Notes under the pieces: model-generated
The model's input: the letters and a program-made list of their open reading frames with translations, nothing else
What the model was told of the DNA's origin: nothing
Databases searched by the model: none
In this document: positions 4,072 to 64,000 of the stretch, piece after piece
Layout: each line of letters opens with the position of its first letter
Numbering within the stretch: position 1 is the first letter of the stretch
Position numbers and translations under genes: made by a program
Assembly: GCF_056712565.1 (NCBI RefSeq)
Contig: NZ_CM160072.1
DNA length: 64,000 bases
Strand: one strand, 5' to 3'

Positions 4072-4348
4072 GTTTTTTTGTCCTGAGTGTGTACATAACT
4101 GGCGCGTAGTTTACTGGTTGCGGCCCCGCTTGACAAAAAACTGCGTATCAAATGCAGATAATGCAATTATTGCCTGAGTGGACTATTAGAAAGTCAAGGT
4201 GTTCAGGCGTTTATTTGTAAAGTTTTGTTGAAATAAGGGTTGTAATTGTGATCACACCCGCACATAACCTACAGGGTGTTGTCTATACTTTACACATAAG
4301 GAAGAGGGGTATACCCTGTTACAACCCAGAAAGTTCCGGAGGTGACAT

Positions 4349-4627
4349 ATGAAACGCAAAAACGCTTCGTTACTCGGTAACGTGCTCATGGGGTTGGGTC
4401 TGGTGGTAATGGTGGTCGGCGTGGGGTATTCAATCCTCAACCAGTTACCACAGTTTAATATGCCCCAGTATTTCGCACATGGTGCAGTGCTAAGTATTTT
4501 CGTCGGTGCGATTCTCTGGCTGGCAGGTGCCCGTGTTGGCGGGCATGAACAGGTGTGCGACCGTTACTGGTGGGTTCGCCACTATGACAAACGTTGCCGC
4601 CGTAGCGATAATCGCCGTCATAGCTAA
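4349..4627 (+). CDS. ychH: Small inner-membrane protein YchH
   Basis: 92-aa ORF with two hydrophobic segments; position between pth and dauA as in E. coli. Confidence 0.85.
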   Translation: MKRKNASLLGNVLMGLGLVVMVVGVGYSILNQLPQFNMPQYFAHGAVLSIFVGAILWLAGARVGGHEQVCDRYWWVRHYDKRCRRSDNRRHS

Positions 4628-8435: not shown

Positions 8436-9127
<692 letters not shown>

Positions 9128-19667: not shown

Positions 19668-20318
19668 TCAGAAAATGCGCTCCTGATGCACCCATACCGC
19701 AGCTTCCACGCGAGACTTTAGCTTCATTTTCTTCAGCATGTGCTTGACGTGAACTTTTACTGTGCTTTCGGTGATGTCCAGGCGGCGGGCAATCATCTTG
19801 TTCGGCAAACCCTGGGCAATTAGCTTGAGAATATCGCGCTCGCGTGGGGTTAACTGGTTAACATCGCGCTCAGTAGTGGCACGGTTAGCGCGCAAGCTGG
19901 CGGCCAGAACAGGCGTTAATGCTTCGCTTAATACCATTTCGCCAGCAGCTGCCTGATGTAACGCTTTCAGCAGATCTTCCGGTTCCATATCTTTTAACAG
20001 ATAGCCATCCGCGCCGCGTTTCAGTGCGGTGACCACATCTTCTTCATGGTTAGAGACGCTGAATACCACAATGCGCCCGGAGAGGGACTTTTCGCGCAGT
20101 TTATCCAGCGTTTCCAGACCGTTCATGCCGGGCATATTGAGATCTAACAGGATCAGATCGGGATCAAGAGACTCCGCCAGTTCAATACCCTGTTCGCCAT
20201 TACTCGCTTCGCCAACCACGGTGATATCTGGTGCCATACTGATAAGCTGTTTTACGCCAGTTCGCAACATCGGGTGATCGTCGATCAGCAGGATAGTAGC
20301 CGGTTCCTGATTACTCAT
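19668..20318 (-). CDS. narL: Nitrate/nitrite response regulator NarL
   Basis: ORF 19668..20432; start placed at ATG 20318 ([19 protein letters not shown]...), 216 aa; overlaps narX stop by 8 bp. Confidence 0.95.
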
Positions 20319-22107
20319 GGGTATCTCCTTGGACGTCTGTGAAAGTTTTTTCGGGAATAAAGGTGACCACCACTTCGGTGCCACCTGATTCACGACGGCG
20401 GACGCGGCAATCGCCTCGTAAACTTTGCGCACGGTCGCGCATTATTATCATGCCGTAGTGATTGCTGCGGATGGCATTTTCAGGCACGCCGCAGCCGTTA
20501 TCCTGGACGGTCAGTTTGACCTGATTATCGTTTTGCGCCACCGTCACCACGACCTCACTCGCTTGCGAATGTTTGAGGGCGTTACTTAATGCCTCACGGG
20601 CAATTTGCAACAAGTGGATTGCCTGATGCGAAGGCACCAGACGAGGCGGCAATTGATAATCCAGCTTCACCGGGAAGCCAAATTTGGCGCTGTACTCTTC
20701 GCAACTCGCCTCCAGCGCCGGACGTAATCCAGGCTCGGTGAGCTGCAAACGGAATGTGGTGAGCAATTCACGCAACTGCACCCAGGATGCATTCAGTTCG
20801 TTACGGATCTGACTTAACAGTTCGCGGCTGCTTTCTGGCAGCGCATCGCCCTGCATCTGTAAGCAACTCACCTGCATCTTCATGCAAGAGAGAGATTGGG
20901 CAATAGAATCATGCAGTTCGCGCGCAATGGTGGCACGCTCTTCCATCACGATCAACTGTTGCTGACGTTCCTGATGGCGATCCAGCGCCAGCGTGGCGGT
21001 GAGTTGTTCAACCAGGGTATCCACCAGTTGTTGTTGATCATGGCTAAGATGACGCCCCTGCGGCAGGGTCGCCAGCAAAATACCGTACTGCGTATGAGTG
21101 TCAGCCAGCCGCCACTTCAGGGTTGTGCCGCGATCGCCAACGGGTAATACGCCGCGCGGGCAGAGCTGGCAGCCTTTATCATCACAAGTCATATCTGGCT
21201 GGCAGGTAAACTCCTGATGATTCTCTTCATCATCAGTGTCATACACCCGCAGTTCGATATCACGTAGCAGGGTTAAATTCTGTAATCCGTTGAGTACAGG
21301 TGACAGGCGTTCACACAGCGGGGCGCGGGAATGCAATCGGCGGTTGGCCTGCCATAAAAAAGAGAGGATCTGATTTTTATGCTCCAGCCCGGCGGTTTTC
21401 TCCTGAACCCGCTGCTCAAGTACGGCATAACTTTCGGCCAGTTCTGCAGACATATTGTTCAACGCAGTTCCAAGCATCGCCATTTCGTTGCGCCCGCTGA
21501 TGTTTGCGCGTTGGGTAAAATCGCGATGGCTGACGGCACTCGCCATTGCCAGCAGTTGCCGCCACGGTTGTAGCAATCTCGCCCGCAACCAGATAATAGT
21601 GAATACCAGTAAAAGTGCCATAAATACCGCCATTACCCGATGGACCAGCACCACTGTCTCAATGCGCATTTCCGTGGTGCGATCAAAACCAGATACCAGC
21701 TGATCAAGCCCGGCAACAAACTGGCTGACATCCGCTGACACCGTTTCGCGGTTTTGTGCACGCATCAGTGCAGGGATCAGTTCATTACGCCAGTAATCTT
21801 GTAAACCCTGTAATTGCGCCAGTTGCCCGTCTCGTTCTGCTGCTCGAGTCAACTCGGCGCTAAATGCTGTTTGTTCCATCTCTTTAATTAAGGGCTTGTC
21901 TTTCTCGCTTAATGGCACTGCTGCCAACAGACGGTAACTTTGCATGCGCAGCGATCCCGCTTTGTTGATCGCATGGGCGCTGCCCTGAACGCCTTGCACC
22001 AGCCAGCCAGAAACCGCCATCCCTGCCAGTCCAATAGCAGTAGAAAGCAACACAATAAGCGCAACCTGATTAACCAGGGTGAGCGGAGAGAGACAACGTT
22101 TAAGCAT
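20311..22107 (-). CDS. narX: Nitrate/nitrite sensor histidine kinase NarX
   Basis: 598-aa ORF with HAMP and H-box (ELHDSIAQ). Confidence 0.95.
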
Positions 22108-22372
22108 GTAAACCTCTTCCTTCAGGCTTTAAATGAGCAATAACCTTAATGAATGTGACGATACATTCTGGAATGGCAGTATTCTCGGCTATTGGCTGAA
22201 GTATACCCATACCCGGAAAGAGTTACTCCTTATTTGCCGTGTGGTTAGTCGCTTTACATCGGTAAGGGTAGGGATTTTACAGCACCGTGAAAAATCTCAT
22301 AATTTTTATGAAATCACTGTACTCACTATGGATAATGATAAATATCAATGATAGATAAAGTTATCTTATCGT

Positions 22373-22386
22373 TTGATTTACATCAA
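22373..22386. promoter_or_regulatory. FNR box (TTGAT-TTAC-ATCAA) in the narK promoter region
   Basis: Perfect FNR consensus read in sequence about 60 bp upstream of narK start codon. Confidence 0.8.
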
Positions 22387-22445
22387 ATTGCCTTTAGCTA
22401 CAGACACTAAGGTGGCAGACATCGAAACGAGTATCAGAGGTGTCT

Positions 22446-23837
22446 ATGAGTCACTCATCCGCCCCCGAAAGGGCTACTGGAGCTGTCATTACAGATTGGC
22501 GACCGGAAGATCCTGCGTTCTGGCAACAACGCGGTCAACGTATTGCCAGCCGCAACCTGTGGATTTCCGTTCCCTGTCTGCTGCTGGCGTTTTGCGTATG
22601 GATGTTGTTCAGCGCTGTTGCGGTGAACTTACCGAAAGTCGGTTTTAATTTTACGACCGATCAGCTATTTATGTTGACTGCGCTGCCTTCGGTTTCTGGC
22701 GCGTTATTACGTGTTCCATACTCCTTTATGGTTCCTATCTTCGGTGGTCGTCGCTGGACGGCGTTCAGCACCGGTATTCTGATTATTCCTTGCGTCTGGC
22801 TGGGTTTTGCCGTGCAGGATACCTCCACGCCTTATAGCGTCTTCATCATCATTTCTCTGCTGTGCGGCTTTGCTGGCGCGAACTTCGCATCCAGTATGGC
22901 AAACATCAGCTTCTTCTTTCCGAAACAGAAGCAGGGTGGCGCGCTGGGTCTGAATGGTGGTCTGGGCAACATGGGCGTCAGCGTCATGCAGTTGGTTGCT
23001 CCGCTGGTGGTATCACTGTCGATTTTCGCAGTATTTGGTAGCCAGGGCGTCAAACAGCCGGATGGGACTGAGCTGTATCTGGCGAATGCGTCCTGGATAT
23101 GGGTGCCGTTCCTTGCCATCTTCACCATTGCGGCGTGGTTTGGCATGAACGATCTTGCTACCTCGAAAGCCTCCATCAAGGAGCAGTTGCCGGTACTCAA
23201 ACGGGGTCATCTGTGGATTATGAGCCTGCTGTATCTGGCAACCTTCGGCTCCTTCATCGGCTTCTCCGCGGGCTTTGCGATGCTGTCAAAAACGCAGTTC
23301 CCGGATGTTCAGATTCTGCAATACGCTTTCTTCGGGCCGTTTATTGGTGCGCTGGCGCGTTCTGCAGGTGGTGCATTATCTGACCGTCTGGGCGGAACTC
23401 GTGTCACTCTGGTGAACTTTATCCTGATGGCGATTTTCAGCGGCCTGCTGTTCCTGACCTTACCGACTGACGGACAGGGCGGAAGCTTCATGGCGTTCTT
23501 CGCAGTCTTCCTGGCGCTGTTCCTGACCGCTGGGCTGGGTAGTGGTTCCACTTTCCAGATGATTTCCGTGATCTTCCGTAAACTGACAATGGATCGTGTG
23601 AAAGCAGAAGGGGGTTCTGACGAACGTGCGATGCGTGAAGCGGCAACCGACACGGCGGCGGCGCTGGGTTTCATCTCTGCGATTGGCGCGATTGGTGGCT
23701 TCTTTATCCCGAAAGCGTTTGGTAGCTCGCTGGCATTAACGGGTTCGCCAGTCGGCGCAATGAAAGTATTTTTGATTTTCTATATCGCCTGCGTGGTGAT
23801 TACCTGGGCGGTATATGGTCGGCATTCTAAAAAATAA
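22446..23837 (+). CDS. narK: Nitrate/nitrite antiporter NarK (MFS)
   Basis: ORF 22440..23837; ATG at 22446 gives MSHSSAPERATGAVITDW..., 463 aa. Confidence 0.95.
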   Translation: MSHSSAPERATGAVITDWRPEDPAFWQQRGQRIASRNLWISVPCLLLAFCVWMLFSAVAVNLPKVGFNFTTDQLFMLTALPSVSGALLRVPYSFMVPIFGGRRWTAFSTGILIIPCVWLGFAVQDTSTPYSVFIIISLLCGFAGANFASSMANISFFFPKQKQGGALGLNGGLGNMGVSVMQLVAPLVVSLSIFAVFGSQGVKQPDGTELYLANASWIWVPFLAIFTIAAWFGMNDLATSKASIKEQLPVLKRGHLWIMSLLYLATFGSFIGFSAGFAMLSKTQFPDVQILQYAFFGPFIGALARSAGGALSDRLGGTRVTLVNFILMAIFSGLLFLTLPTDGQGGSFMAFFAVFLALFLTAGLGSGSTFQMISVIFRKLTMDRVKAEGGSDERAMREAATDTAAALGFISAIGAIGGFFIPKAFGSSLALTGSPVGAMKVFLIFYIACVVITWAVYGRHSKK

Positions 23838-23961
23838 ATCGTAATATTTGATTATCCTTTGCGCGGCATGATGTCGCGCTTTTTTTATGCGTCATTTAGT
23901 TACAACATACTAATGTTGTATGGCTTATTTCGCTGGATTTCATTAAGAGTCATTAATATGT

Positions 23962-23991
23962 TACCCATGGGGAATACTCCTTAATACCCAT
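23962..23991. promoter_or_regulatory. NarL heptamer cluster (TACCCAT / TACTCCT / TACCCAT) about 200 bp upstream of the narG transcription start
   Basis: Three TACYYMT heptamers read in sequence at the expected distance from the FNR site. Confidence 0.7.
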
Positions 23992-24124
23992 CTGCATAAA
24001 AATCTTAATGGTTTAAATAACTACAGGTGTAAAATGTCTTAATTTACAGTCTGTTATGCTATAAATGTTAATTATCCTAAAGGGGTATTCCAGGAATTTA
24101 CTTTATTTTTCATCCCCATCACTC

Positions 24125-24138
24125 TTGATCGTTATCAA
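24125..24138. promoter_or_regulatory. FNR box (TTGAT-CGTT-ATCAA) of the narG promoter
   Basis: Perfect FNR consensus about 90 bp upstream of narG ATG. Confidence 0.85.
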
Positions 24139-24229
24139 TTCCCACGCTGTTTCAGAGCGTTACCTTGCCCTTAAACATTAGCAATGTCGATTTATCAGAG
24201 GGCCGACAGGCTCCCACAGGAGAAAACCG

Positions 24230-27200
24230 ATGAGTAAATTCCTGGACCGGTTTCGCTACTTCAAACAGAAGGGTGAAACCTTTGCCGATGGGCATGGCCA
24301 GCTTCTCAATACCAACCGTGACTGGGAGGATGGATATCGCCAGCGTTGGCAGCATGACAAAATCGTCCGCTCTACCCACGGGGTAAACTGCACCGGCTCC
24401 TGCAGCTGGAAAATCTACGTCAAAAACGGTCTGGTCACCTGGGAAACCCAGCAGACTGACTATCCGCGAACTCGCCCGGACCTGCCAAACCATGAACCTC
24501 GCGGCTGCCCGCGCGGTGCCAGCTACTCCTGGTATCTTTACAGCGCTAACCGCCTGAAATACCCGATGATGCGCAAACGCCTGATGAAAATGTGGCGTGA
24601 AGCGAAGGCGCTGCATAGCGATCCGGTTGAGGCATGGGCTTCTATCATTGAAGACGCCGATAAAGCGAAAAGCTTTAAGCAGGCGCGTGGACGCGGTGGT
24701 TTTGTTCGTTCTTCCTGGCAGGAAGTGAACGAACTGATCGCCGCATCTAACGTTTACACCATCAAAAATTACGGCCCGGACCGTGTCGCTGGCTTCTCGC
24801 CAATTCCGGCAATGTCGATGGTTTCTTACGCATCGGGTGCGCGCTATCTCTCGCTGATTGGCGGTACTTGCTTAAGCTTCTACGACTGGTACTGCGACCT
24901 GCCTCCTGCGTCTCCGCAAACCTGGGGTGAGCAAACTGACGTACCGGAATCTGCTGACTGGTACAACTCCAGCTACATCATCGCCTGGGGTTCAAACGTG
25001 CCGCAGACGCGTACCCCGGATGCTCACTTCTTTACTGAAGTGCGTTACAAAGGGACCAAAACTGTTGCCGTCACACCAGACTACGCTGAAATCGCCAAAC
25101 TGTGCGATCTGTGGCTGGCACCGAAACAGGGCACCGATGCGGCAATGGCGCTGGCAATGGGTCACGTAATGCTGCGTGAATTCCACCTCGACAACCCAAG
25201 CCAGTATTTCACCGACTATGTGCGCCGCTACACCGACATGCCGATGCTGGTGATGCTGGAAGAGCGCGACGGTTACTACGCTGCGGGTCGTATGCTGCGC
25301 GCTGCTGATCTGGTGGATGCACTGGGCCAGGAAAACAATCCGGAATGGAAAACTGTCGCCTTTAATACCAATGGTGAAATGGTTGCGCCGAACGGTTCTA
25401 TTGGCTTCCGCTGGGGCGAGAAGGGCAAATGGAATCTTGAGCAGCGCGACGGCAAAACTGGCGAAGAAACCGAGCTGCAACTGAGCCTGCTGGGTAGCCA
25501 GGATGAGATCGCTGAGGTGGGCTTCCCGTACTTTGGTGGCGATGGCACGGAACACTTCAACAAAGTGGAACTGGAAAACGTGCTGCTGCATAAGCTGCCG
25601 GTGAAACGCCTGCAACTGGCTGATGGCAGCACCGCCCTGGTGACCACCGTTTATGATCTGACGCTGGCAAACTACGGTCTGGAACGTGGCCTGAACGACG
25701 TTAACTGTGCAACCAGCTATGACGATGTGAAAGCTTACACCCCTGCCTGGGCCGAGCAGATTACCGGCGTTTCTCGCAGCCAGATTATTCGCATCGCCCG
25801 TGAATTTGCCGATAACGCTGATAAAACGCACGGTCGTTCGATGATTATCGTCGGCGCTGGGCTGAACCACTGGTATCACCTGGACATGAACTATCGTGGT
25901 CTGATCAACATGCTGATTTTCTGCGGCTGTGTCGGTCAGAGCGGCGGTGGCTGGGCGCACTATGTAGGTCAGGAAAAACTGCGTCCGCAAACCGGCTGGC
26001 AGCCGCTGGCGTTTGCCCTCGACTGGCAGCGTCCGGCGCGTCACATGAACAGTACCTCTTATTTCTATAACCACTCCAGCCAGTGGCGTTATGAAACCGT
26101 GACTGCGGAAGAACTGCTGTCGCCGATGGCGGATAAATCTCGCTATACTGGACACCTGATCGACTTTAACGTCCGTGCAGAACGCATGGGCTGGCTGCCG
26201 TCTGCGCCGCAGTTAGGCACTAACCCGCTGACTATCGCTCGCGAAGCAGAAAAAGCTGGGATGAATCCGGTGGACTATACGGTTAAATCCCTGAAAGAGG
26301 GTTCTATCCGTTTCGCTGCGGAACAGCCGGAAAACGGTAAAAACCACCCGCGTAATCTGTTCATCTGGCGTTCTAACCTGCTCGGTTCTTCCGGTAAAGG
26401 TCATGAGTTTATGCTCAAGTACCTGCTGGGGACGGAGCACGGTATCCAGGGCAAAGACCTGGGGCAGCAGGGCGGCGTGAAGCCGGAAGAAGTGGACTGG
26501 CAGGACAACGGTCTGGAAGGCAAGCTGGATCTGGTGGTGACGCTGGACTTCCGTCTGTCGAGCACCTGTCTCTATTCCGACATCATTTTGCCGACGGCGA
26601 CCTGGTACGAAAAAGACGACATGAATACTTCGGATATGCATCCGTTTATTCACCCGCTGTCTGCGGCGGTCGATCCGGCCTGGGAAGCGAAAAGCGACTG
26701 GGAAATCTACAAAGCCATCGCGAAGAAATTCTCCGAAGTGTGCGTTGGTCATCTGGGTAAAGAAACTGACATCGTCACGCTGCCTATCCAGCACGACTCT
26801 GCCGCTGAACTGGCGCAACCGCTGGATGTGAAAGACTGGAAAAAAGGCGAATGCGACCTGATCCCAGGTAAAACTGCACCGCACATTATGGTCGTAGAGC
26901 GCGATTATCCAGCAACTTACGAACGCTTTACCTCTATCGGCCCGCTGATGGAGAAAATCGGTAACGGCGGTAAAGGGATTGCCTGGAACACCCAGAGCGA
27001 GATGGATCTGCTGCGTAAGCTCAACTACACCAAAGCGGAAGGTCCGGCAAAAGGCCAGCCGATGCTCAATACCGCAATTGATGCGGCAGAGATGATCCTG
27101 ACGCTGGCACCGGAAACCAATGGTCAGGTAGCTGTAAAAGCCTGGGCTGCCCTGAGCGAGTTTACCGGCCGTGACCATACGCATCTGGCGCTGAATAAAG

Positions 27201-27973
27201 AAGACGAGAAGATTCGCTTCCGCGATATTCAGGCACAGCCGCGCAAAATCATCTCCAGCCCGACATGGTCTGGCCTTGAAGATGAACACGTTTCTTACAA
27301 CGCCGGTTACACCAACGTTCACGAGCTGATCCCGTGGCGTACGCTCTCTGGTCGTCAGCAACTGTATCAGGATCACCAGTGGATGCGTGATTTCGGTGAA
27401 AGCCTGCTGGTTTATCGTCCGCCGATCGACACCCGTTCGGTGAAAGAAGTGATGGGGCAGAAATCCAACGGCAACCCGGAAAAAGCGCTCAACTTCCTGA
27501 CGCCGCACCAGAAGTGGGGTATCCACTCCACCTACAGCGACAACCTGCTGATGCTGACTTTAGGTCGCGGTGGTCCGGTGGTCTGGCTGAGTGAAGCCGA
27601 TGCCAAAGAGCTGGGTATCGCCGATAACGACTGGATTGAAGTCTTCAACAGCAACGGTGCACTGACTGCCCGTGCGGTTGTCAGCCAGCGTGTTCCGGCA
27701 GGGATGACCATGATGTACCACGCGCAGGAACGTATCGTTAACCTGCCTGGTTCGGAAATTACCCAACAGCGTGGTGGTATCCATAACTCGGTCACCCGTA
27801 TCACGCCGAAACCGACGCATATGATCGGCGGCTATGCCCATCTGGCATATGGCTTTAACTACTACGGCACCGTAGGTTCTAACCGCGATGAGTTTGTTGT
27901 AGTGCGTAAGATGAAGAACATTGACTGGTTAGATGGCGAAGGCAATGACCAGGTACAGGAGAGCGTAAAATGA
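24230..27973 (+). CDS. narG: Respiratory nitrate reductase A alpha subunit (molybdopterin)
   Basis: 1247-aa ORF, conserved NarG. Confidence 0.97.
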   Translation: MSKFLDRFRYFKQKGETFADGHGQLLNTNRDWEDGYRQRWQHDKIVRSTHGVNCTGSCSWKIYVKNGLVTWETQQTDYPRTRPDLPNHEPRGCPRGASYSWYLYSANRLKYPMMRKRLMKMWREAKALHSDPVEAWASIIEDADKAKSFKQARGRGGFVRSSWQEVNELIAASNVYTIKNYGPDRVAGFSPIPAMSMVSYASGARYLSLIGGTCLSFYDWYCDLPPASPQTWGEQTDVPESADWYNSSYIIAWGSNVPQTRTPDAHFFTEVRYKGTKTVAVTPDYAEIAKLCDLWLAPKQGTDAAMALAMGHVMLREFHLDNPSQYFTDYVRRYTDMPMLVMLEERDGYYAAGRMLRAADLVDALGQENNPEWKTVAFNTNGEMVAPNGSIGFRWGEKGKWNLEQRDGKTGEETELQLSLLGSQDEIAEVGFPYFGGDGTEHFNKVELENVLLHKLPVKRLQLADGSTALVTTVYDLTLANYGLERGLNDVNCATSYDDVKAYTPAWAEQITGVSRSQIIRIAREFADNADKTHGRSMIIVGAGLNHWYHLDMNYRGLINMLIFCGCVGQSGGGWAHYVGQEKLRPQTGWQPLAFALDWQRPARHMNSTSYFYNHSSQWRYETVTAEELLSPMADKSRYTGHLIDFNVRAERMGWLPSAPQLGTNPLTIAREAEKAGMNPVDYTVKSLKEGSIRFAAEQPENGKNHPRNLFIWRSNLLGSSGKGHEFMLKYLLGTEHGIQGKDLGQQGGVKPEEVDWQDNGLEGKLDLVVTLDFRLSSTCLYSDIILPTATWYEKDDMNTSDMHPFIHPLSAAVDPAWEAKSDWEIYKAIAKKFSEVCVGHLGKETDIVTLPIQHDSAAELAQPLDVKDWKKGECDLIPGKTAPHIMVVERDYPATYERFTSIGPLMEKIGNGGKGIAWNTQSEMDLLRKLNYTKAEGPAKGQPMLNTAIDAAEMILTLAPETNGQVAVKAWAALSEFTGRDHTHLALNKEDEKIRFRDIQAQPRKIISSPTWSGLEDEHVSYNAGYTNVHELIPWRTLSGRQQLYQDHQWMRDFGESLLVYRPPIDTRSVKEVMGQKSNGNPEKALNFLTPHQKWGIHSTYSDNLLMLTLGRGGPVVWLSEADAKELGIADNDWIEVFNSNGALTARAVVSQRVPAGMTMMYHAQERIVNLPGSEITQQRGGIHNSVTRITPKPTHMIGGYAHLAYGFNYYGTVGSNRDEFVVVRKMKNIDWLDGEGNDQVQESVK

Positions 27974-29508
27974 AAATTCGTTCACAAGTCGGCATGGTGC
28001 TGAATCTCGATAAGTGCATCGGCTGCCACACCTGTTCAGTGACCTGTAAAAACGTCTGGACCAGCCGTGAAGGCGTGGAATACGCGTGGTTCAACAACGT
28101 GGAAACCAAGCCGGGCCAGGGCTTCCCGACTGACTGGGAAAACCAGGAAAAATACAAAGGCGGCTGGATCCGTAAAATCAACGGCAAACTTCAGCCGCGC
28201 ATGGGTAACCGTGCCATGCTGCTGGGTAAAATCTTCGCTAACCCGCATCTGCCGGGGATCGACGATTATTACGAGCCATTCGATTTTGATTATCAGAACC
28301 TGCATACCGCGCCGGAAGGCAGCAAATCACAGCCGATTGCCCGTCCGCGTTCACTGATTACCGGCGAACGGATGGCGAAAATCGAAAAAGGGCCGAACTG
28401 GGAAGATGACCTGGGCGGTGAGTTTGACAAGCTGGCGAAAGACAAGAACTTCGACAACATCCAGAAGGCGATGTATAGCCAGTTCGAAAACACCTTCATG
28501 ATGTATTTGCCGCGCCTGTGCGAACACTGTCTGAACCCGGCATGTGTGGCGACCTGCCCGAGCGGTGCGATTTACAAGCGTGAAGAAGATGGCATCGTCC
28601 TGATCGACCAGGATAAATGCCGTGGCTGGCGTATGTGCATCACCGGATGCCCGTACAAAAAAATCTACTTCAACTGGAAGAGCGGTAAGTCTGAGAAGTG
28701 CATCTTCTGCTATCCGCGTATTGAAGCCGGCCAGCCGACAATATGTTCAGAAACCTGTGTCGGTCGTATCCGTTATCTTGGCGTGCTGCTGTACGATGCC
28801 GACGCGATTGAACGTGCGGCAAGTACCGAGAACGAGAAAGATCTCTACCAGCGTCAGCTGGATGTGTTCCTCGATCCGAACGATCCGAAAGTCATCGAGC
28901 AGGCGATTAAAGACGGTATTCCGCTGAGCGTTATTGAGGCTGCACAGCAGTCGCCAGTTTATAAAATGGCGATGGAATGGAAACTGGCGCTGCCGCTGCA
29001 TCCGGAATATCGCACACTGCCGATGGTCTGGTACGTGCCGCCTCTGTCGCCGATTCAGTCTGCGGCAGACGCGGGTGAACTGGGCAGCAACGGCATTCTG
29101 CCAGACGTCGAAAGCCTGCGTATTCCGGTACAGTATCTGGCGAATCTGCTGACCGCCGGTGATACCAAACCGGTACTGCGCGCGCTGAAACGTATGCTGG
29201 CGATGCGTCATTACAAACGTGCTGAAACCGTTGACGGTAAAGTCGATACCCGTGCGCTGGAAGAGGTCGGTCTGACCGAAGCCCAGGCACAGGAGATGTA
29301 TCGTTATCTGGCTATTGCCAACTACGAAGATCGCTTTGTGGTGCCGAGCAGTCATCGTGAACTGGCGCGGGAAGCCTTCCCGGAGAAAAATGGCTGCGGC
29401 TTTACCTTTGGTGATGGCTGCCACGGTTCAGATACCAAATTCAATCTGTTCAACAGCCGCCGTATCGATGCCATCGACGTAACCAGCAAAACGGAGCCGC
29501 ACCCATGA
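27970..29508 (+). CDS. narH: Nitrate reductase A beta subunit (Fe-S)
   Basis: 512-aa ORF with multiple CxxCxxC clusters; overlaps narG stop. Confidence 0.97.
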   Translation: MKIRSQVGMVLNLDKCIGCHTCSVTCKNVWTSREGVEYAWFNNVETKPGQGFPTDWENQEKYKGGWIRKINGKLQPRMGNRAMLLGKIFANPHLPGIDDYYEPFDFDYQNLHTAPEGSKSQPIARPRSLITGERMAKIEKGPNWEDDLGGEFDKLAKDKNFDNIQKAMYSQFENTFMMYLPRLCEHCLNPACVATCPSGAIYKREEDGIVLIDQDKCRGWRMCITGCPYKKIYFNWKSGKSEKCIFCYPRIEAGQPTICSETCVGRIRYLGVLLYDADAIERAASTENEKDLYQRQLDVFLDPNDPKVIEQAIKDGIPLSVIEAAQQSPVYKMAMEWKLALPLHPEYRTLPMVWYVPPLSPIQSAADAGELGSNGILPDVESLRIPVQYLANLLTAGDTKPVLRALKRMLAMRHYKRAETVDGKVDTRALEEVGLTEAQAQEMYRYLAIANYEDRFVVPSSHRELAREAFPEKNGCGFTFGDGCHGSDTKFNLFNSRRIDAIDVTSKTEPHP

Positions 29509-30215
29509 TCGAACTCGTGATTGTATCGCGTCTCCTTGAATATCCGGATGCTGCCTTATGGCAGCATCAACAAGAGATGTTTGAGGCGATTGCCGCGTCG
29601 AAAAATCTGCCAAAAGAGGATGCCCATGCGCTGGGCATTTTCCTGCGCGATTTAACGACGATGGATCCGCTCGATGCCCAGGCGCAGTACAGCGAACTGT
29701 TCGACCGTGGCCGCGCCACGTCACTGTTGCTATTTGAACATGTTCACGGTGAATCCCGTGACCGCGGCCAGGCGATGGTGGATCTGCTGGCGCAGTACGA
29801 GCAGCACGGCTTGCAGTTAAACAGCCGCGAATTGCCCGACCATCTGCCGCTGTATCTGGAGTACCTGGCGCAGCTGCCGCAAAGCGAAGCCGTGGAGGGT
29901 TTGAAAGATATTGCGCCGATTCTGGCATTGCTGAGCGCGCGTCTGCAACAGCGTGAAAGCCGTTATGCCGTGCTGTTTGATCTGCTGCTGAAACTGGCGA
30001 ATACCGCAATCGACAGCGACAAAGTGGCGGAAAAAATTGCCGACGAAGCGCGCGACGATACGCCGCAGGCGCTGGATGCAGTCTGGGAAGAAGAGCAGGT
30101 TAAATTCTTTGCTGACAAAGGCTGCGGTGATTCAGCAATCACTGCTCATCAGCGTCGCTTTGCCGGTGCCGTCGCGCCGCAATATCTGAATATCACCACC
30201 GGAGGACAGCACTAA
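29505..30215 (+). CDS. narJ: Nitrate reductase assembly chaperone NarJ
   Basis: 236-aa ORF; overlapping start. Confidence 0.95.
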
Positions 30216-30892
30216 TGCAATTCCTGAATATGTTCTTCTTTGATATCTACCCGTACATAGCCGGGGCGGTCTTCCTGATTGGTAGCTGGCTGCGTTATGA
30301 CTACGGGCAGTACACATGGCGTGCGGCGTCCAGCCAGATGCTGGATCGCAAAGGGATGAACCTCGCGTCGAACCTGTTCCATATCGGTATTCTGGGGATT
30401 TTTGTCGGTCACTTCTTCGGTATGCTGACGCCGCACTGGATGTATGAAGCCTGGCTGCCGATTGAAGTGAAACAGAAAATGGCGATGTTTGCTGGTGGTG
30501 CCAGCGGCGTACTGTGTCTGATTGGTGGCGTGCTGTTGCTGAAGCGTCGTCTGTTCAGCCCACGCGTGCGTGCAACCACTACCGGAGCGGATATCCTGAT
30601 CCTGTCGCTGCTCGTTATCCAGTGCGCGCTGGGCTTGCTGACCATTCCGTTCTCAGCCCAGCATATGGACGGTAGCGAGATGATGAAACTGGTTGGCTGG
30701 GCGCAGTCGGTAGTGACCTTCCACGGTGGTGCTTCTCAACACCTTGATGGTGTGGCGTTTATCTTCCGTCTGCACCTGGTGTTGGGGATGACGTTATTCC
30801 TGCTGTTCCCGTTCTCGCGTCTGGTGCACATCTGGAGCGTCCCGGTGGAGTATCTGACGCGTAAGTATCAGCTGGTGCGCGCTCGTCACTAA
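30215..30892 (+). CDS. narI: Nitrate reductase A gamma subunit (cytochrome b)
   Basis: 225-aa membrane ORF; start overlaps narJ stop. Confidence 0.95.
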
Positions 30893-30920: not shown

Positions 30921-32245
30921 TCGGCGCTGAGGGATCCCCATAAATCAGCGATAATAAACCAACACCATATTCTGGTAGGTTCTGGTGAGGTGATTAAGAA
31001 TGGTGCTTAGCACCGTTCGTTTTAAAATTAGCGGGGAGTGTCGTAAGACATTCTCCGCTAACGTCAGATACGAGATTACCCGCCGCGTTTTAATGCTGTT
31101 GGCCTGATATCTAAGATGTAACCCTTGATTTTCAGCGTGATAGCCAATAAGCCACAGCACTATTGTGCTCAGTGTTGCCAGCAGGCTCAGTACCAGCATT
31201 CTTCCTGCCGAACAGCTGTAACTGGCTCGCAGACCGAACCCAAAACGCTCACTTTTTTCATCCCTGAAGTTTTGCTCAATCTGCATTCGGCGGCTGTATA
31301 ACTTCATGATTTCTCGCGGTTTAAAGTCATCTGTGCTGCTGAATATTAACCATGGTTCTTTTGCCGCCGACCTGGCATCTTTTATCTGTGATGGTCTGGC
31401 TATACCACAACGCGAACGTTTATTTCTCCGGCCTTTCGGCTCTTTTTTGTGCAAATAAAAATGACCATCGCAACGGGCGTATTCCGCCCGGGAAAGCGTC
31501 CCCGGCCCCAGATATTCAGGTTTGTTACTGGCCTGTAATTCCTGACGCCTGAACCAGCATTCCCCTTTTCTCGCCAGATGCAGTTGTTTATTGCCTCGTA
31601 TCCGGCCAATAAAATCCCAGCCGAGTGATTTTATGTGCCGAAACCAGGCATTCTGGAACCCTGCATCCGTGACGATGATTACCCTTGCTTTTGGGTTTAC
31701 CGCTTCGGAAAGAGTATTAAGAAAGGCTTGCTGTATCTTTGCATTTTGCTGTTTTTCCGAAGGAACTATCCAACTCAGCAATGGAATCGAATGTCCATAG
31801 CAAATCAGGCTGGCGCGGAGTACGTGATACTCCTGAGAGGGGTATCCACTCCAGTCAACGGCGATGACACACAGTGACAGCTTGCTCGTCAGCATGGAAA
31901 TAATGTTTCTGAAAATCAGGGGGATGTCGTGATGAAGAGACTCATTACCGAGCAGACGATCAACACGTTTTATTTTATTTTTGACCTGAGCATTACCGGG
32001 TAAATAACGTCCGATGCTGGTCAGCGTCAGAGATGCGCCATTGATTAGTGCGATAGTGGCATCCAACAAAGCATTTTGTCGGTATTTGTGAAATGGTGCT
32101 AAAGCACCGCGGAAAAAATTCTGACATACTTGGCGAGCAGGCATAGAGGAGATCTCATTGAATTGGTTGCACAAGTCAGTAGATCACAAAACTCTATGCC
32201 TGTCTTTTTTTACCCGCCCATTACTGGGGATTCCTCAGCGCTCCG
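30921..32245 (-). mobile_element. IS186-like insertion sequence (IS4 family), about 1.32 kb; boundaries approximate (+/- 15 bp)
   Basis: Single DDE-transposase ORF flanked by near-perfect 17-bp inverted repeats GCGCTGAGG(G/A)ATCCCCA at 30924-30940 and 32226-32242; size fits IS186 (about 1.34 kb). Confidence 0.65.
30945..32174 (-). CDS. IS4-family (IS186-like) DDE transposase
   Basis: 409-aa ORF; DDE-type features (VIIVTDAGF) and YREK-like signature (YSRRMQIEQNFRDEK); stop codon 5 bp inside the left IR. Confidence 0.75.
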   Translation of the reverse strand: MCNQFNEISSMPARQVCQNFFRGALAPFHKYRQNALLDATIALINGASLTLTSIGRYLPGNAQVKNKIKRVDRLLGNESLHHDIPLIFRNIISMLTSKLSLCVIAVDWSGYPSQEYHVLRASLICYGHSIPLLSWIVPSEKQQNAKIQQAFLNTLSEAVNPKARVIIVTDAGFQNAWFRHIKSLGWDFIGRIRGNKQLHLARKGECWFRRQELQASNKPEYLGPGTLSRAEYARCDGHFYLHKKEPKGRRNKRSRCGIARPSQIKDARSAAKEPWLIFSSTDDFKPREIMKLYSRRMQIEQNFRDEKSERFGFGLRASYSCSAGRMLVLSLLATLSTIVLWLIGYHAENQGLHLRYQANSIKTRRVISYLTLAENVLRHSPLILKRTVLSTILNHLTRTYQNMVLVYYR

Positions 32246-32936: not shown

Positions 32937-33779
32937 TTAAAGAATAATCGTCCGATTACCGTAAACAAAGACGCGCTGCGCCAGTACTTTGTATAGCGCA
33001 CGACTTAAGACGTTTTTCTCGACGTCACGACCTGCGCGCATCATATCTTCAGCTGTGTAGGTATGATCGACATGAATAACGTCCTGCATGATGATTGGGC
33101 CTTCGTCCAGATTGTCATTCACATAGTGAGCGGTTGCGCCAATAATCTTCACGCCACGCTCATAGGCCTGGTGATAAGGACGTGCGCCGATAAACGCTGG
33201 CAGGAATGAATGGTGAATATTGATGATCTTATTCGGGAAGCGTGCCACAAATTCCGGCGTTAATACCCGCATATACTTCGCCAGCACCACATAGTCAGGT
33301 TGATAAGCATCAATGGCATCCGCCATCTTTTGATCGTGCTCGTTGCGGCTTAACCCTTCATGGCTTACCAGCTCAAACGGAATATCAAACCGCTCAACCA
33401 GAGAACGTAAAGTATCGTGGTTACCAATAACTGCCGCGATTTCGACATCCAGGCCGCCGTAATTGGCTTTCATCAACAAATCGCCAAGGCAATGCGCTTC
33501 TTTAGTGACCAGAATTACTATCCGGCGACGACCGGCAGGATTCAGCTCACGCACGGAGCCTTCTGGCAATGCGCTATCGAGATCCGCCAGCAGGGTGGAA
33601 TCATTAAAAATCCCTTCCAGTTCCGTGCGCATAAAAAAGCGCCCGGTACGATGATCTACAAATTCATTGTTCTGCACGATATTTAACTCGTGCTTGTAGC
33701 AAATATTGGTAATACGTGCGATCAGACCTTTTTGGTCCGGACAAATAGTACGCAGAACTTTACGTTGGAGTGAATGCAT
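32937..33779 (-). CDS. purU: Formyltetrahydrofolate deformylase
   Basis: 280-aa ORF with ACT domain and formyltransferase core. Confidence 0.95.
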   Translation of the reverse strand: MHSLQRKVLRTICPDQKGLIARITNICYKHELNIVQNNEFVDHRTGRFFMRTELEGIFNDSTLLADLDSALPEGSVRELNPAGRRRIVILVTKEAHCLGDLLMKANYGGLDVEIAAVIGNHDTLRSLVERFDIPFELVSHEGLSRNEHDQKMADAIDAYQPDYVVLAKYMRVLTPEFVARFPNKIINIHHSFLPAFIGARPYHQAYERGVKIIGATAHYVNDNLDEGPIIMQDVIHVDHTYTAEDMMRAGRDVEKNVLSRALYKVLAQRVFVYGNRTIIL

Positions 33780-39424: not shown

Positions 39425-40630
39425 TTATACACCGACATTGACTTGTAACCTGTAAAGTACAATATCGCTGTGTGTAGGCGTTATACATCGTCGCAAATAT
39501 GATGAAGGACAATGCTGCCGGTTTATGGAAAAGTTGTTTTGGGAAAACAAAAAACGGCCCCAGAAGGGGTAATGCCAGTCAGTTAAGCAACTGACTGGCT
39601 CTTTTTCGGGGCTGTGGGGTATTTCCAGGGCCTCTCCTTTACCACTCTCGGGAAGGCCCTTTCCCTTCTTGTCGGTAATTTCACTGGTTGTCCCATACTT
39701 GCAAGATCGCGCATCAGCTCCGGTATACGTCCCGGTGAAGCGTATGGCGTCCGTCATCGACGTCAGCAGATGGCAGACTTTTCCTTTGCGCGTCACGGTC
39801 AGCAGGCGGGCTGTCACCTCATTTCCCAGTCCCGGCCACTTTTTTCGTGCCTGCGGGCTGATGTTCAGCTTCACCAGATGATCGCCTTTACCCAGTTTTC
39901 TGATCTCTTCATATTGCGCTCCCTTTCTGAGAGGGATCATCCAGTGGCGGTGTTCTCCCGCCAGGCTCCAGGCATTTAACAGTCCTGGTGAGTAATAACC
40001 TTTATCCATTAACGTCAGAGTGTTATCGCCGGTTTGTTCTATAAGTTGCTCAGCAAGCTCATTTTCGCTGTTCTTCATCGTGCCGAAGGCTGCAGTCGTC
40101 AGCAGATGGCTGGTCAGTTCCATCTGGCAGACCATTTTGACCTGCGGGTAGAGCGCCGGGTTCCCGGCATGTGTCTGGCGGGGGAAGGCTGCATCGTTCT
40201 CTGGTGTATCCGGTGTGCGCCAGAACACACCATCGATGGCCAGCAGGGTCAGGCCGCACCAGTGCGGATGCGGCGTGGCGTTATGCCAGAGCTGCGCTGT
40301 TTTCGTGAACACGCGGCGGACAGCCTCAATTCCCAGACGCTGGCGGGTCTGAATAACGGCACTGGGGGCAACGAAGGGGCGATTGCCCGGCAGCATGATG
40401 TCCAGGCGATTCACAATCTGGTGAAGAGGTTCTTTACGCTCAAGCGCCATGCCAACAATACACCAGACCATCATTTCGAGGGGAAGACGGCGCTTGCGTA
40501 GCGTTACAGTACCTGATTCGGCAAGGCAACGAGAGATGAGTTTGGGGGCGAGGTAATCCCCCAGAGAAGTCAGTGGGTTACGCAGAGAATCGTAACGGGA
40601 TACCAAATCAAGGGCCTGCCCAATGAGCAT
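39425..40630 (-). pseudogene. insZ: IS4 transposase, disrupted: N-terminal about 300 residues look intact, C-terminal part is out of frame and reads through the left IR
   Basis: 401-aa [29 protein letters not shown]... resembles IS4 transposase as I recall it; the reading frame does not stop inside the element (ends 130 bp beyond the IR), indicating deletion/frameshift; K-12 carries an insZ pseudogene at this tdk-adhE position. Confidence 0.6.
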
Positions 40631-43431: not shown

Positions 43432-43907
43432 AATGCTCTCCTGATAATGTTAAACTTTTTTAGTAAATCATCTGCTCGAATACGAGAGTATAGTCAGTGC
43501 GGTGATGATTTGCTTAACCGATGGAAATCAAAAGCTTACTCGCGCTCACACTCACTGTGATTTACTAAAAGAGTTTAAACATTAGAGTTATTATCTCTAA
43601 TGCGTCACTTCCAGGTGGCGTAAGCAAGATTACTCACTTCTGGGTACTGATTACGTGATCCAAATCAAAATTTTGCAAAGCTGACACCTTTCAGCATGGC
43701 TTTTCGCCATTATAGCTAACAGTTAATAAATTGTAGTATGATTTGTTGGCTACATTAGCATGTTTTGCACAACTAGGTAACAATAACGAATGATAGCAAT
43801 TTTAAGTAGTTAGGAGGTGAAAAATGCTGTCAAAAGGCGTATTGTCAGCGCGTCTTTTCAACCTTATTTATGGCTAACATTATCCGGCTTTTGCTTCGGA
43901 GCTAACC

Positions 43908-57772: not shown

Positions 57773-58127
57773 GCACTCTCCTTGAGTTTTATGCAGGTGT
57801 TAATTAGCGGGCAATTGTACCCTGGTTAAGCCCCGGGTGGCAGCATCAGGTCTTGTATGGAAAAGCATATCTTTGTAAAGCGGAGGTAATTGCTGGCCTT
57901 CAGGCGTGGGCAAACCGCTGAAAGTGGCGAGCGAGTTAATATTTGCGTAGCGAAATATATAAAAATTGATTTAAATCACATTAACCAGGATTTTCAATGC
58001 AACTTCTAAATTAATCCAGATCAATAAAGGGTGAATTACCATATGTAATGTGATCTGTGTAGGATCATTTGTTACCCCAATGTGGGTATATTCGTCACGT
58101 TTTTATAACCATAACGACGGAGCGGAT

Positions 58128-58770: not shown

Positions 58771-58803
58771 CTCTGCAAAACCTCTGCAAAACCCCTCTGC
58801 AAA
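58771..58803. repeat. Three tandem copies of an 11-bp unit CTCTGCAAAAC (third with a CC insertion) immediately 3' of ompW stop
   Basis: ctctgcaaaac ctctgcaaaac (cc)ctctgcaaaac read directly in sequence. Confidence 0.8.
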
Positions 58804-58804
58804 A

Positions 58805-58829
58805 CTGGTCATCAAATGACCAGTTTTTT
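58805..58829 (+). terminator. ompW Rho-independent terminator (ctggtcat-caa-atgaccag + TTTTTT); the integrase stop codon lies inside this hairpin
   Basis: Perfect 8-bp stem + U-run; integrase stop codon at 58812-58814. Confidence 0.75.
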
Positions 58830-59942
58830 CCATTCCTTACCGCGTGCGTCGTTGTAAATATCGGTCATTTTTTGATTCGAATGGCCCAGCAAAATTTTGG
58901 TATCAACCCCCTGCTCTCTGAACAATCGCTCTGATAAAGATCTCTGCTCATGGAAAGAGGGTGGGGTGCCATTAGCACGCCAGTTGTAATCCACAGAATC
59001 CCGGGCTTTTTTAAATGCAACGGTTAATGTTGCTGGCTTAACCATCCCGCCGCGCTTAGCTGTCCCTTTCGCGTGATGGTGGTGCAATAGCCACGGACTA
59101 AGAACGCAATCGCGGCAGGATGACACCACATCATCTAGGGTGAGATTTAATTTATCGCAACGCAGAGCCAGAGGGATGGCAATCCGGGTTCCTGTTTTTT
59201 GCTGTTCGACATGAAGATAACCATCCCGGATATCCGAAAATTGCATTTTGCAAATATCTGAAAGGCGCTGGCCTGTCATCAGTGCCAGCAGCATACCGCG
59301 CTGTAAAAAGTAACCATCCTTTTCCGCTGCGTTATAAATCATCATCCACTCATCAAAAGTCAGTCGCTGTCTTGATATCCGCACCTGCGGTTTTTTTGCC
59401 GATTCTGCAGGGTTAAAGCCTGGCGGGACATCGCCCGTTTGCTGAGCTTCCCGGAAAACATCGATCAGTACTTTCCTGAAAATTTGTCCCATTCTGTTAT
59501 GTCCTCTGGCCTTGTACTCTTCCAGTACTGATACCACATCTTTTACGGTTATGGCATCTAACGGTCTGGTGCCAAAACGTTCATCAAATACCCTGAGAGG
59601 GGCCGCTTTCTGTTTCAGCGTGTTGAGTTTGATCTCGCCGTTTTCATATCTTTCCTGTTGAATTTTTCTGTAATTATTCAGAAAAATGGTAACGGTTGAT
59701 GAACCGCCGGTGTCACTAATAATTTTCTCCTGCAGACTGAGCATTTGTTCCATTTGCTGCCGGGCAAGACGGCTGTTCGCTTCTGCTGCAATAGTTTCTG
59801 CCAGTTTCTGGTCAATACTGCCGAGACCGTGATTTTTGCCTGTTATGGGATGCCTGTAACGCCAGTAAACTTTGTTATTTCTTTTGTCAAAATACGGAGA
59901 TAATCCCGGAACATCGGTTTTATATTTTCGCGGGCGCGCCAT
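58812..59942 (-). CDS. int: Lambda-family tyrosine integrase
   Basis: 376-aa ORF; strong resemblance to lambda Int including GQRLSDICKMQFSDI..YLHVEQQKTGTRIAIP and PPSFHEQRSLSERL..LLGHS...IYND (catalytic R, H-x-x-R, Y). Confidence 0.92.
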   Translation of the reverse strand: MARPRKYKTDVPGLSPYFDKRNNKVYWRYRHPITGKNHGLGSIDQKLAETIAAEANSRLARQQMEQMLSLQEKIISDTGGSSTVTIFLNNYRKIQQERYENGEIKLNTLKQKAAPLRVFDERFGTRPLDAITVKDVVSVLEEYKARGHNRMGQIFRKVLIDVFREAQQTGDVPPGFNPAESAKKPQVRISRQRLTFDEWMMIYNAAEKDGYFLQRGMLLALMTGQRLSDICKMQFSDIRDGYLHVEQQKTGTRIAIPLALRCDKLNLTLDDVVSSCRDCVLSPWLLHHHHAKGTAKRGGMVKPATLTVAFKKARDSVDYNWRANGTPPSFHEQRSLSERLFREQGVDTKILLGHSNQKMTDIYNDARGKEWKKLVI

Positions 59943-60168
59943 CTTCCAGTATCCTCTTCAAAGCAGGGTGATCTGTGGCGATCACCTCCGGCTTGTTTAC
60001 CATTCCGACAAAGCGAGCTTGCGGATCCACTCGCCAGCGTCTTCCAACTTTTTTGGGGAGAGGAAATATCATTCCGGCTTTAGCGTATTTACTTAACGTA
60101 CTCGGAGTAGGGACCGGTTCACTGAATTCCTCCTTTGCCCACTCAGTGAGCAGAATAAGTCTTGCCAT
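59920..60168 (-). CDS. xis: Excisionase (lambda Xis-like)
   Basis: 82-aa ORF immediately upstream of and overlapping int; LLTEWAKEEF...IFPLPKKVGRRWRV parallels lambda Xis LTLQEWNARQ...IFPPPVKDGREYLF. Confidence 0.75.
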   Translation of the reverse strand: MARLILLTEWAKEEFSEPVPTPSTLSKYAKAGMIFPLPKKVGRRWRVDPQARFVGMVNKPEVIATDHPALKRILEDGAPAKI

Positions 60169-60232
60169 GAGCGTCGTTCGCTAATCATGGTCGCCGCCAC
60201 TATAGCTGGTGGGCAACGACCGGGGTTGAACA

Positions 60233-60775
60233 TTAAAAATCAGCCTGATTTGGGATCAGTTTTTGCCAGATAGCTGAAACGTATTTTGCCTGGTAACGGG
60301 CGTCATCAAGTGCATTATGGCGCTCACCTTCGAATGGAATAGCCGTTCTGGCATCGAAGTCTATGGCTTTCCCCAGCTCAACGATTGTGCGTACATCGCG
60401 ATCGTTGTAGTAACGCCACGGGCAGGGGATCCCCTGCCGTTCGTATGAACGGCGCAAAATCGTGTTGTCGAAGTTGGCTCCATTTCCCCAAACCTGAACA
60501 AAAAATTCACCGGAGTTTTCGTCGATAAATTCCCGCAATTGTAACAGTGCATCATCTAACGGGATTTCATCGGTCATAATGGCAGATTGCGCTTCGCGTG
60601 ATTGCTTAAGCCACCATTTAATGGTGTCCCGATCAATGACTCCGCCAGCAGTTTCCAGATCGATAGTCTTACTAAATTCCGGTCCCATATCTCCGGTTTG
60701 CGGATCGAAAAATATTGCACCTATTGAGATGATCGGGGCATCAGGATTTTTTCCCATGGTTTCAAGGTCGATCAT
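60233..60775 (-). CDS. Phage-encoded DnaQ-like (DEDDh) 3'-5' exonuclease
   Basis: 180-aa ORF with Exo I (MIDLETMG), Exo II (WGNGANFD) and Exo III (HNALDDARYQ) motifs. Confidence 0.7.
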   Translation of the reverse strand: MIDLETMGKNPDAPIISIGAIFFDPQTGDMGPEFSKTIDLETAGGVIDRDTIKWWLKQSREAQSAIMTDEIPLDDALLQLREFIDENSGEFFVQVWGNGANFDNTILRRSYERQGIPCPWRYYNDRDVRTIVELGKAIDFDARTAIPFEGERHNALDDARYQAKYVSAIWQKLIPNQADF

Positions 60776-60808
60776 TAGATGGTCACACGTCCTGCTGGTG
60801 GATGTGAT

Positions 60809-62704: not shown

Positions 62705-62796
62705 TTTGTTTTACCTCATTACAGATTTAAGGGTGAACAAATCCCTGCCATTGCTGGCATATAAGAATGAAATCGGATGTTTATTACGGAACTGTT

Positions 62797-62988
62797 TTAA
62801 AGACCTGCCGGGATTTCGTTATTATCCTGGTGAATAACTTTATCGACCGGGTAACAGTTACCGGGAATTTTCTGTTCGGTTGCTGCAGTCACACACTCCT
62901 GCATTGTCCTGTGAACACTGACTGCAGTATCAACTGGCTCTCCGGAAACAAGAAAAACTGTCAGAACAAGTGCAAATGCTGTATTCAT
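62797..62988 (-). CDS. Small secreted/membrane protein (63 aa, signal-peptide-like N-terminus MNTAFALVLTVFLVSG, two Cys)
   Basis: ORF 62797..63042; start placed at ATG 62988 with AGGA Shine-Dalgarno 9 nt upstream. Confidence 0.45.
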   Translation of the reverse strand: MNTAFALVLTVFLVSGEPVDTAVSVHRTMQECVTAATEQKIPGNCYPVDKVIHQDNNEIPAGL

Positions 62989-63738: not shown

Positions 63739-63960
63739 CTATTCACGCGGGTATGTAATCATTCTGGCAATGCTTAATGCCGCTGCTTTTTCCAGATTGG
63801 TGATATCCTGCTCCAGAGCGGACAGATTTTCAGCCTGCTTAGCCCTGGCTTCATTGGCCCATTTCAAATCCTGCGCTGCATTAATTTTCTGGCGCATCCA
63901 CTCATAAAGTTCATCATTGGTATAGTCTGGCGCGATGATGACGGGTTCTCGTTTCTGCAT
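63739..63960 (-). CDS. Hypothetical phage protein (73 aa, predicted helical, ..LSALEQDITNLEKAAA..)
   Basis: ORF with GAGGAA Shine-Dalgarno 7 nt upstream of ATG; co-oriented with prophage early genes. Confidence 0.5.
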   Translation of the reverse strand: MQKREPVIIAPDYTNDELYEWMRQKINAAQDLKWANEARAKQAENLSALEQDITNLEKAAALSIARMITYPRE

Positions 63961-64000
63961 ACTGATTCCTCGCGGTGCTGCTTCGCTTATCAGCCGTTAG

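Follow-up and report, generated by a model that had tools for sequence, protein, structure and literature searches.

The narK and narG control regions of an Escherichia coli strain carry the FNR and NarL site arrangement of K-12

Are the sites through which FNR and NarL control narK and narGHJI in Escherichia coli K-12 intact in another strain of the species, and how far can motif reading be trusted to recognize them? We analyzed a 64-kb stretch of DNA (64,000 nucleotides; hereafter, the window) that contains this locus. A 2.5-kb stretch has 100% identity to E. coli ATCC 11775 (DSM 30083, NZ_CP033092.2), and the same 2.5-kb stretch was found in 5415 of 5426 complete E. coli genomes. We conclude that the window almost certainly carries the standard E. 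coli narX-narK-narGHJI control regions. The genes of the locus, and the terminator that follows narK, are as follows.

19668-20318, minus strand: narL, encoding the heptamer-binding response regulator (RefSeq annotation of the identical record)
20311-22107, minus strand: narX, nitrate sensor kinase, divergent from narK (RefSeq annotation)
22446-23837, plus strand: narK coding sequence (list of open reading frames and annotation)
23861-23886, plus strand: narK intrinsic terminator and 3' end of the NarS region, GCGCGGCATGATGTCGCGC and then T7 (terminator scan)
24230-27973, plus strand: narG (RefSeq annotation)
24230-30892, plus strand: narGHJI operon, i.e., narG, narH, narJ, and narI (RefSeq annotation)

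The narX and narL genes are divergent and lie upstream of narK-narG, while fnr is outside the 64-kb window. The NarL and NarK proteins show no difference from those of K-12. The open reading frame of narX is intact, and its product differs from K-12 NarX at two residues (T337S and V443A). In the alignment, the narK terminator corresponds to the 3' part of the narS annotation of K-12. Elsewhere in the window, the annotation includes an intact IS4-family transposase gene (30945-32144, minus strand) between narI and the rtT/tyrT-tyrV tRNA cluster and a frameshifted IS4-family transposase (39583-40630, minus strand) between tdk and adhE. A prophage remnant (about 58800-64000) adjoins ompW and takes up the right end of the window; its annotated genes include integrase, excisionase, exonuclease, dicB, ydfD, and ydfC.

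The consensus for FNR binding is TTGAT-N4-ATCAA, and the consensus for CRP is TGTGA-N6-TCACA. The original prediction, which was made from the letters of the window, placed a perfect FNR site upstream of both narK and narG. A pattern search found both of them at exactly the predicted bases and with zero mismatches. We also placed a weaker FNR-like site and two putative -10 hexamers.

22373-22386, unstranded: narK FNR site TTGATTTACATCAA, TTGAT-N4-ATCAA with no mismatches, centered at -41.5 (pattern search)
24125-24138, unstranded: narG FNR site TTGATCGTTATCAA, TTGAT-N4-ATCAA with no mismatches, centered at -41.5 (pattern search)
22335-22348, unstranded: second narK FNR-like site ATGATAAATATCAA, one mismatch, centered at -79.5 (near-consensus search)
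22408-22413, plus strand: putative narK -10 hexamer TAAGGT (from the -41.5 placement and the conserved T, A, and T in the hexamer)
24161-24166, plus strand: putative narG -10 hexamer TACCTT (from the -41.5 placement; positions 1, 2, and 6 are 90-100% conserved)

Both perfect 14-mers are the same as in K-12, base for base (alignment with MG1655). In K-12, both are bound by FNR according to ChIP-seq (Myers 2013, PMC3688515, supplementary file 6), and narGHJI and narK are directly activated by FNR from sites at -41.5 (Myers 2013, PMC3688515, Table 1). If the -41.5 numbering is transferred from K-12, then transcription would start at A 22421 for narK and at A 24173 for narG. Conserved -10-like hexamers lie 28.5-29.5 bp downstream of the centers of the FNR sites, and there is no match to a -35 element, which is consistent with the -41.5 placement. 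A scan for sigma-70 promoters called neither the narK nor the narG promoter. This is not evidence against them, because activator-dependent promoters that lack a -35 element are expected to be missed. The FNR-like site at -79.5 is 38 bp upstream of the main narK site and is identical in K-12.

Overall, the 64-kb window contains three perfect matches to TTGAT-N4-ATCAA, versus 0.05 expected (standard deviation 0.22), and none of 100 shuffles reached three. The third match, TTGATAAGCATCAA at 33300-33313, is within the coding sequence of purU (a minus-strand gene, 32937-33779). In K-12, the purU 14-mer was predicted as an FNR site but was not bound by FNR in ChIP-seq, and no nucleoid protein overlaps it (PMC3688515, supplementary file 6). 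As this site shows, matching the consensus perfectly is by itself no proof of function. Among the one-mismatch matches, GTGATCCAAATCAA (43655-43668) is in the adhE/ychE intergenic region, and TTGATTTAAATCAC (57966-57979) and TTAATCCAGATCAA (58011-58024) are upstream of ompW. Sites with these sequences, at adhE/ychE and both at ompW, are bound in K-12 according to ChIP (PMC3688515). A further one-mismatch match is at 8900-8913, within lolB.

For NarL, TACCCAT and TACTCCT heptamers had been predicted at 23962-23991, as a cluster about 200 bp upstream of the narG start. This span does contain three plus-strand copies, and with the FNR site placed at -41.5, their centers are at -208, -195, and -185. 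We identified further NarL-type sites closer to narG and upstream of narK.

23962-23968, plus strand: narG NarL heptamer TACCCAT at -208 (heptamer search; identical to K-12)
23975-23981, plus strand: narG NarL heptamer TACTCCT at -195 (heptamer search; identical to K-12; within the NarL-P footprint of the -195 region, PMC4549865)
23985-23991, plus strand: narG NarL heptamer TACCCAT at -185 (heptamer search; identical to K-12)
24072-24087, unstranded: narG NarL 7-2-7-like site TTATCCT-AA-AGGGGTA, with heptamers at -98 and -89 (identical to K-12; high-affinity region)
22204-22210, plus strand: narK NarL-type heptamer TACCCAT, about -214 from the putative start (heptamer search; identical to K-12)
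22224-22230, plus strand: narK NarL-type heptamer TACTCCT, about -194 (heptamer search; identical to K-12)
22320-22326, plus strand: narK near-consensus heptamer TACTCAC, about -98 (sequence reading)

The centers of the narG heptamers at -208, -195, -185, and -89 were computed with +1 at 24173, which follows the numbering of the K-12 start site. Single matches to TACYYMT are near the chance level in the window (40 found versus 31 expected). The narG cluster is the only place in the window with three TACYYMT matches on the same strand within 30 bp. None of 400 first-order Markov simulations contained such a cluster, and the analytic expectation is about 0.001.

At the proximal narG site, the right heptamer (24081-24087) is the consensus TACCCCT on the minus strand, and the left heptamer matches at only four of seven positions. 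The native -98/-89 site is thus 7-2-7-like and not a perfect 7-2-7. The perfect 7-2-7 palindrome in PMC4549865 was engineered. Nor is the cluster near -200 a 7-2-7 site, as the heptamers there are direct repeats. In DNase I footprinting of narG, NarL-P bound the -89 region with high affinity and the -195 region with lower affinity, and both regions, as well as FNR and IHF, were needed (Katsir et al., PMC4549865). A segment of narG from -223 conferred NarL- and nitrate-dependence on a heterologous core promoter, which a single 7-2-7 site did not (Hothersall et al. 2022, PMC9314961). At narK, the heptamer at -98 overlaps the NarL site CACTGTA that is listed for narK in a database (PMC2718512). 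The supplements of MotifAdjuster have no rows for narG or narK.

To compare these promoters across species, we scanned genome contigs with an anchor made from codons 1-13 of narG, in which third positions were degenerate; this avoids selecting on the sites themselves. This gave at least 120 species loci, mostly from Enterobacterales. There were 113 loci with at least 300 bp upstream of narG, and 98 narG promoters were aligned; for narK, we compared 57 species. Among the matches listed, 96 of 113 species have a perfect FNR site at narG, and six more have a site with a single mismatch; these sites are mostly 96-103 bp from the ATG (113 loci), and the site is absent from Pantoea, Erwinia, Izhakiella, and Vibrio. 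Both half-sites are at least 95% conserved in the 98-promoter alignment (again among the matches listed). Among the matches listed, 52 of 57 species have a perfect narK FNR site and the other five have one with a single mismatch; the FNR-like site at -79.5 is restricted to Escherichia (at most one mismatch in 3 of 57 species).

The NarL sites show a range of conservation. Across the 98 narG promoters, and among the matches listed, consensus heptamers are concentrated at -200 to -191, where 67 of 98 species have one. The -195 heptamer is at least 90% conserved as TAC.CC; TAC.CCTTAATACC, which spans this heptamer and the first half of the one at -185, is mostly 70% to at least 95% conserved; and the -185 heptamer is partly conserved, with its first four bases (TACC) at 70-100% and the rest variable (98 species, among the matches listed). 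The -208 heptamer is essentially specific to E. coli and is poorly conserved outside it, among the matches listed, and its contribution is therefore less certain. In the proximal site, the -89 heptamer is an exact consensus in 23 of 98 species and is 80-100% conserved as G.GGTA, and T....CT is conserved in the -98 heptamer (among the matches listed). The DNA between the narG elements is not conserved in the 98-promoter alignment, among the matches listed. Upstream of narK, the block TATACCCATACCC (around -214) is 80-100% conserved across 57 species, the block TTACTCCTTA (around -194) is conserved in these species as well, and TACTCA (around -98) is 80-100% conserved, all among the matches listed.

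The alignment also bears on IHF. We placed a putative narG IHF site by conservation and by its expected position, not by a significant motif match.

24044-24056, plus strand: IHF-like core TTACAGTCTGTTA, centered at about -123, identical to K-12 (putative, from conservation)

This stretch has three mismatches to the IHF consensus WATCAANNNNTTR. A scan for the consensus with up to one mismatch was uninformative and did not pick out the narG site, because the number of matches equals the expectation (63 versus 63). However, CA (24047-48) is at least 95% conserved and TTA (24054-56) is 70% to at least 95% conserved in 98 species, among the matches listed, and Salmonella has AATCAGTAAGATA at the same place, which is closer to WATCAANNNNTTR. 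We read the CA...TTA pair as the putative core of the narG IHF site. Since the simple consensus scan was at chance, this is a site that we infer. IHF is required at narG (PMC4549865, PMC3688515). In the narK promoter, AATCAAACGATAA (22366-22378, minus strand) matches the IHF consensus with one mismatch and overlaps the left half of the FNR site. An IHF ChIP-chip signal is flagged at the narX/narK site of K-12 (PMC3688515, supplementary file 6).

How far do these elements vary within E. coli? We counted the records that are at least 99% identical to the window for four segments of the two promoters.

23955-24000: narG heptamer stretch, 46 bp, at least 99% identical in 4617 of 5414 E. coli records
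24105-24180: narG core promoter, 76 bp, at least 99% identical in 4211 of 5417 records
22325-22425: narK core, 101 bp, at least 99% identical in 4554 of 5417 records
24040-24125: IHF-like core to FNR site, 86 bp, at least 99% identical in 1091 of about 5415 records

For the last of these segments, the window's allele is in the minority, and most E. coli genomes differ from it by 8-12%. Within E. coli, the activator sites are stable and the spacer between them is polymorphic.

We also compared the window with K-12. Its narGHJI promoter has no base changed in the FNR 14-mer, in the -98/-89 site, in the -208, -195, and -185 heptamers, in the IHF-like core, or in the -10 hexamer, and the leader is the same throughout. 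The differences are at 24059-65 (-114 to -108), where the window has CTATAAA and K-12 has TGGTGGC (six of the seven bases differ); at 24089-91 (-84 to -82), where the window has TCC and K-12 has CTT; and at a few single positions upstream of -130. At -114 to -108, K-12 is the one that stands apart, and the window has a sequence like that of other Escherichia species; at -84 to -82, it is the window that is the outlier. The 7-bp replacement at 24059-65 seems to have arisen as one block and not through separate point mutations. The sole change that touches a listed site affects the first base of a weak heptamer in the database, which is TAGGAAT in K-12 and CAGGAAT in the window. This heptamer is listed from Li et al. 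1994, as cited in PMC2718512. Its strand-adjusted form, AGGAATT at 24092-98, is intact in the window. The changed spacer positions are weakly conserved across species (98-species alignment, among the matches listed), and we consider a qualitative effect of the spacer changes on regulation to be unlikely.

The narK promoter has the same FNR 14-mer, -79.5 site, and heptamers as K-12. In the 371 bp of the narX-narK region that were aligned, there are two substitutions (the window has A instead of G at 22313 and at 22332), and the second is 3 bp upstream of the -79.5 site. Downstream of narK, K-12 has a 123-bp element between the stop codon and the terminator that the window lacks (junction 23837/23838). 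The insert is at about 4344-4466 of the K-12 locus that we compared, within the annotated narS small RNA, and it folds as a long hairpin. We take it to be an ERIC element: it matches the ERIC1R and ERIC2 primer sequences. Copies that are at least 99% identical are found in 2457 of 5426 complete E. coli genomes. As the insert is present in some genomes and absent from others, the NarS precursor region is polymorphic in length in E. coli.

These differences raise the question of whether the strain could have all the canonical sites and yet be regulated in a quantitatively different way, because of its minority spacer (-114 to -82) and its shorter NarS precursor region, from which the ERIC element is missing. 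The six substitutions at 24059-65 and the 3-bp change at 24089-91 affect the flank of the IHF-like core and the base next to the -89 site, the 86-bp allele is found in just 1091 of about 5415 genomes, and the 123-bp insert in narS of K-12 is missing. But all of the footprinted or conserved core elements are unchanged relative to K-12, and the poor conservation of the variable positions across species suggests that they are under weak constraint. Also, at -114 to -108 it is K-12 that departs from the other Escherichia species, whereas the window resembles them. We consider a quantitative difference of this kind to be quite unlikely.

It could also be argued that the matches arose by chance in intergenic DNA that is rich in A and T, and that they play no part in regulation. 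Single heptamers near the expected number, and a perfect FNR consensus in purU that is not bound in K-12, would be compatible with this. But the window should contain just 0.05 perfect FNR sites, and the three-heptamer cluster was not seen in any of 400 simulations. The distance from the FNR sites to the start codons is fixed, and the sites are kept in 96 of 113 species (narG) and 52 of 57 species (narK), among the matches listed, while their flanks are not. Furthermore, the identical sequences from K-12 are bound in vivo and in vitro (PMC3688515, PMC4549865). Thus, it is extremely improbable that the matches arose by chance. The idea that the inverted repeats are bound by CRP, a paralogue of FNR, instead of by FNR is barely credible. 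Sites for the two proteins are alike in architecture. In an engineered narG promoter, the FNR site can be exchanged for one that binds CRP (PMC9314961). But the half-sites TTGAT and ATCAA with a 4-bp spacer are the FNR consensus and not TGTGA-N6-TCACA. Both FNR occupancy by ChIP-seq and fnr-dependent expression are recorded for these exact sequences (PMC3688515).

We return to the standard control regions as the preferred reading. The presence, position, non-randomness, conservation, and identity to K-12 of the elements come from this analysis; binding and activation come from the literature on the identical K-12 sequence. The mechanism is established for K-12, and we infer it for ATCC 11775. 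Under anaerobic conditions, a dimer of FNR with its [4Fe-4S] cluster would bind the site that is 41.5 bp upstream of each start and, at both promoters, would contact and recruit RNA polymerase in a class II fashion. If nitrate is present, NarX would phosphorylate NarL. At narG, NarL-P would then occupy the -98/-89 site, for which it has high affinity, and, with lower affinity, the direct heptamers at -208, -195, and -185, and an IHF-induced bend near -123 would bring this distal array towards the complex of FNR and polymerase, which would give full induction. The same logic would apply to narK, with heptamers near -214, -194, and -98 and the extra weak FNR-like site at -79.5. The expected outcome is AND-type control by anoxia and nitrate.

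One conserved element of narG is separate from the FNR and NarL sites and is part of the transcript.

24181-24198, plus strand: narG leader block GCAATGTCGATTTATCAG, about +9 to +26, very highly conserved (98-species alignment)

Among the matches listed, the identity of the leader block is at least 95% at 24181-87 and 70-99% elsewhere (98 species, as well as a restricted alignment of 83 species). In about 80-100 enterobacterial species, its conservation is similar to that of the FNR half-sites and higher than that of the -10 hexamer or the NarL heptamers, again among the matches listed. An ATG at 24184, within the block, opens a frame of 17 codons (MSIYQRADRLPQEKTDE, 24184-24237) that ends with TAA at 24235-37, which is 5 nucleotides into narG and overlaps the start of narG. 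Among the matches listed, this frame runs without a stop up to the start of narG in 70 of 99 species and has early stops in 29. Given these early stops, and because the frame and the sequence change between genera, we rejected a conserved leader peptide (99 species, among the matches listed). A scan of 21900-24400 with Rfam (E-value of at most 1) gave two chance-level matches and no family for NarS or the narG leader, and RNAalifold predicted no consensus structure for the narG leader from 65-80 distinct sequences. The GAGCC-N4-GGCUC hairpin in the leader is nearly invariant, so it offers no test of covariation. With no conserved peptide, consensus structure, or Rfam family, the conservation is at the nucleotide level. 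A literature search on control through the narG 5' UTR found nothing. Given its conservation, the block may act on nitrate reductase as a post-transcriptional or downstream-operator control element that has not been described before, but this is a tentative idea that we consider unlikely. One form that such an element could possibly take is a short upstream open reading frame that begins at ATG 24184 and whose termination overlaps the start codon of narG.

What do these results say about the canonical anaerobic and nitrate control architecture, which the original prediction took to be intact? At the level of the sequence it is, because the elements are identical to those of K-12. The account of it was partial, as it lacked the most important NarL site, at -98/-89, the IHF-like core, the narK heptamers, the narK site at -79.5, and the FNR match in purU. 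The proposed comparison with published footprints came out positive, since the identical sequences carry FNR binding and NarL-P footprints in K-12, and the heptamers coincide with the NarL-P footprints at -195 and -89 (PMC4549865). As had also been anticipated, nothing in this arrangement is novel, and the sites can serve as a positive control: they are the characterized narK and narGHJI targets, identical to K-12 and bound by FNR there. The control architecture of narK and narG in this strain is already known; it is the K-12 arrangement itself in another E. coli strain. Its value is for calibration, in that a published architecture can be recovered from sequence statistics and phylogenetic footprinting alone.

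The limit of motif reading is illustrated by the silent consensus FNR sites of Myers et al. (2013). The purU site in the window is the same sequence as one of these sites, which was predicted but is unbound in K-12 even though its match to the consensus is as perfect as those at narK and narG. Unlike those two sites, it is within a coding region and lacks promoter context. Among promoters that respond to both FNR and NarL, narG resembles the class II promoters of nirB and fdnG, which also have FNR near -41.5, upstream NarL heptamers, and AND-type control by anaerobiosis and nitrate. The nirB promoter has a single 7-2-7 site, at -69.5, that is bound by both NarL and NarP. In contrast, narG needs the distal direct heptamers at about -200 and bending by IHF, and it responds to NarL only.
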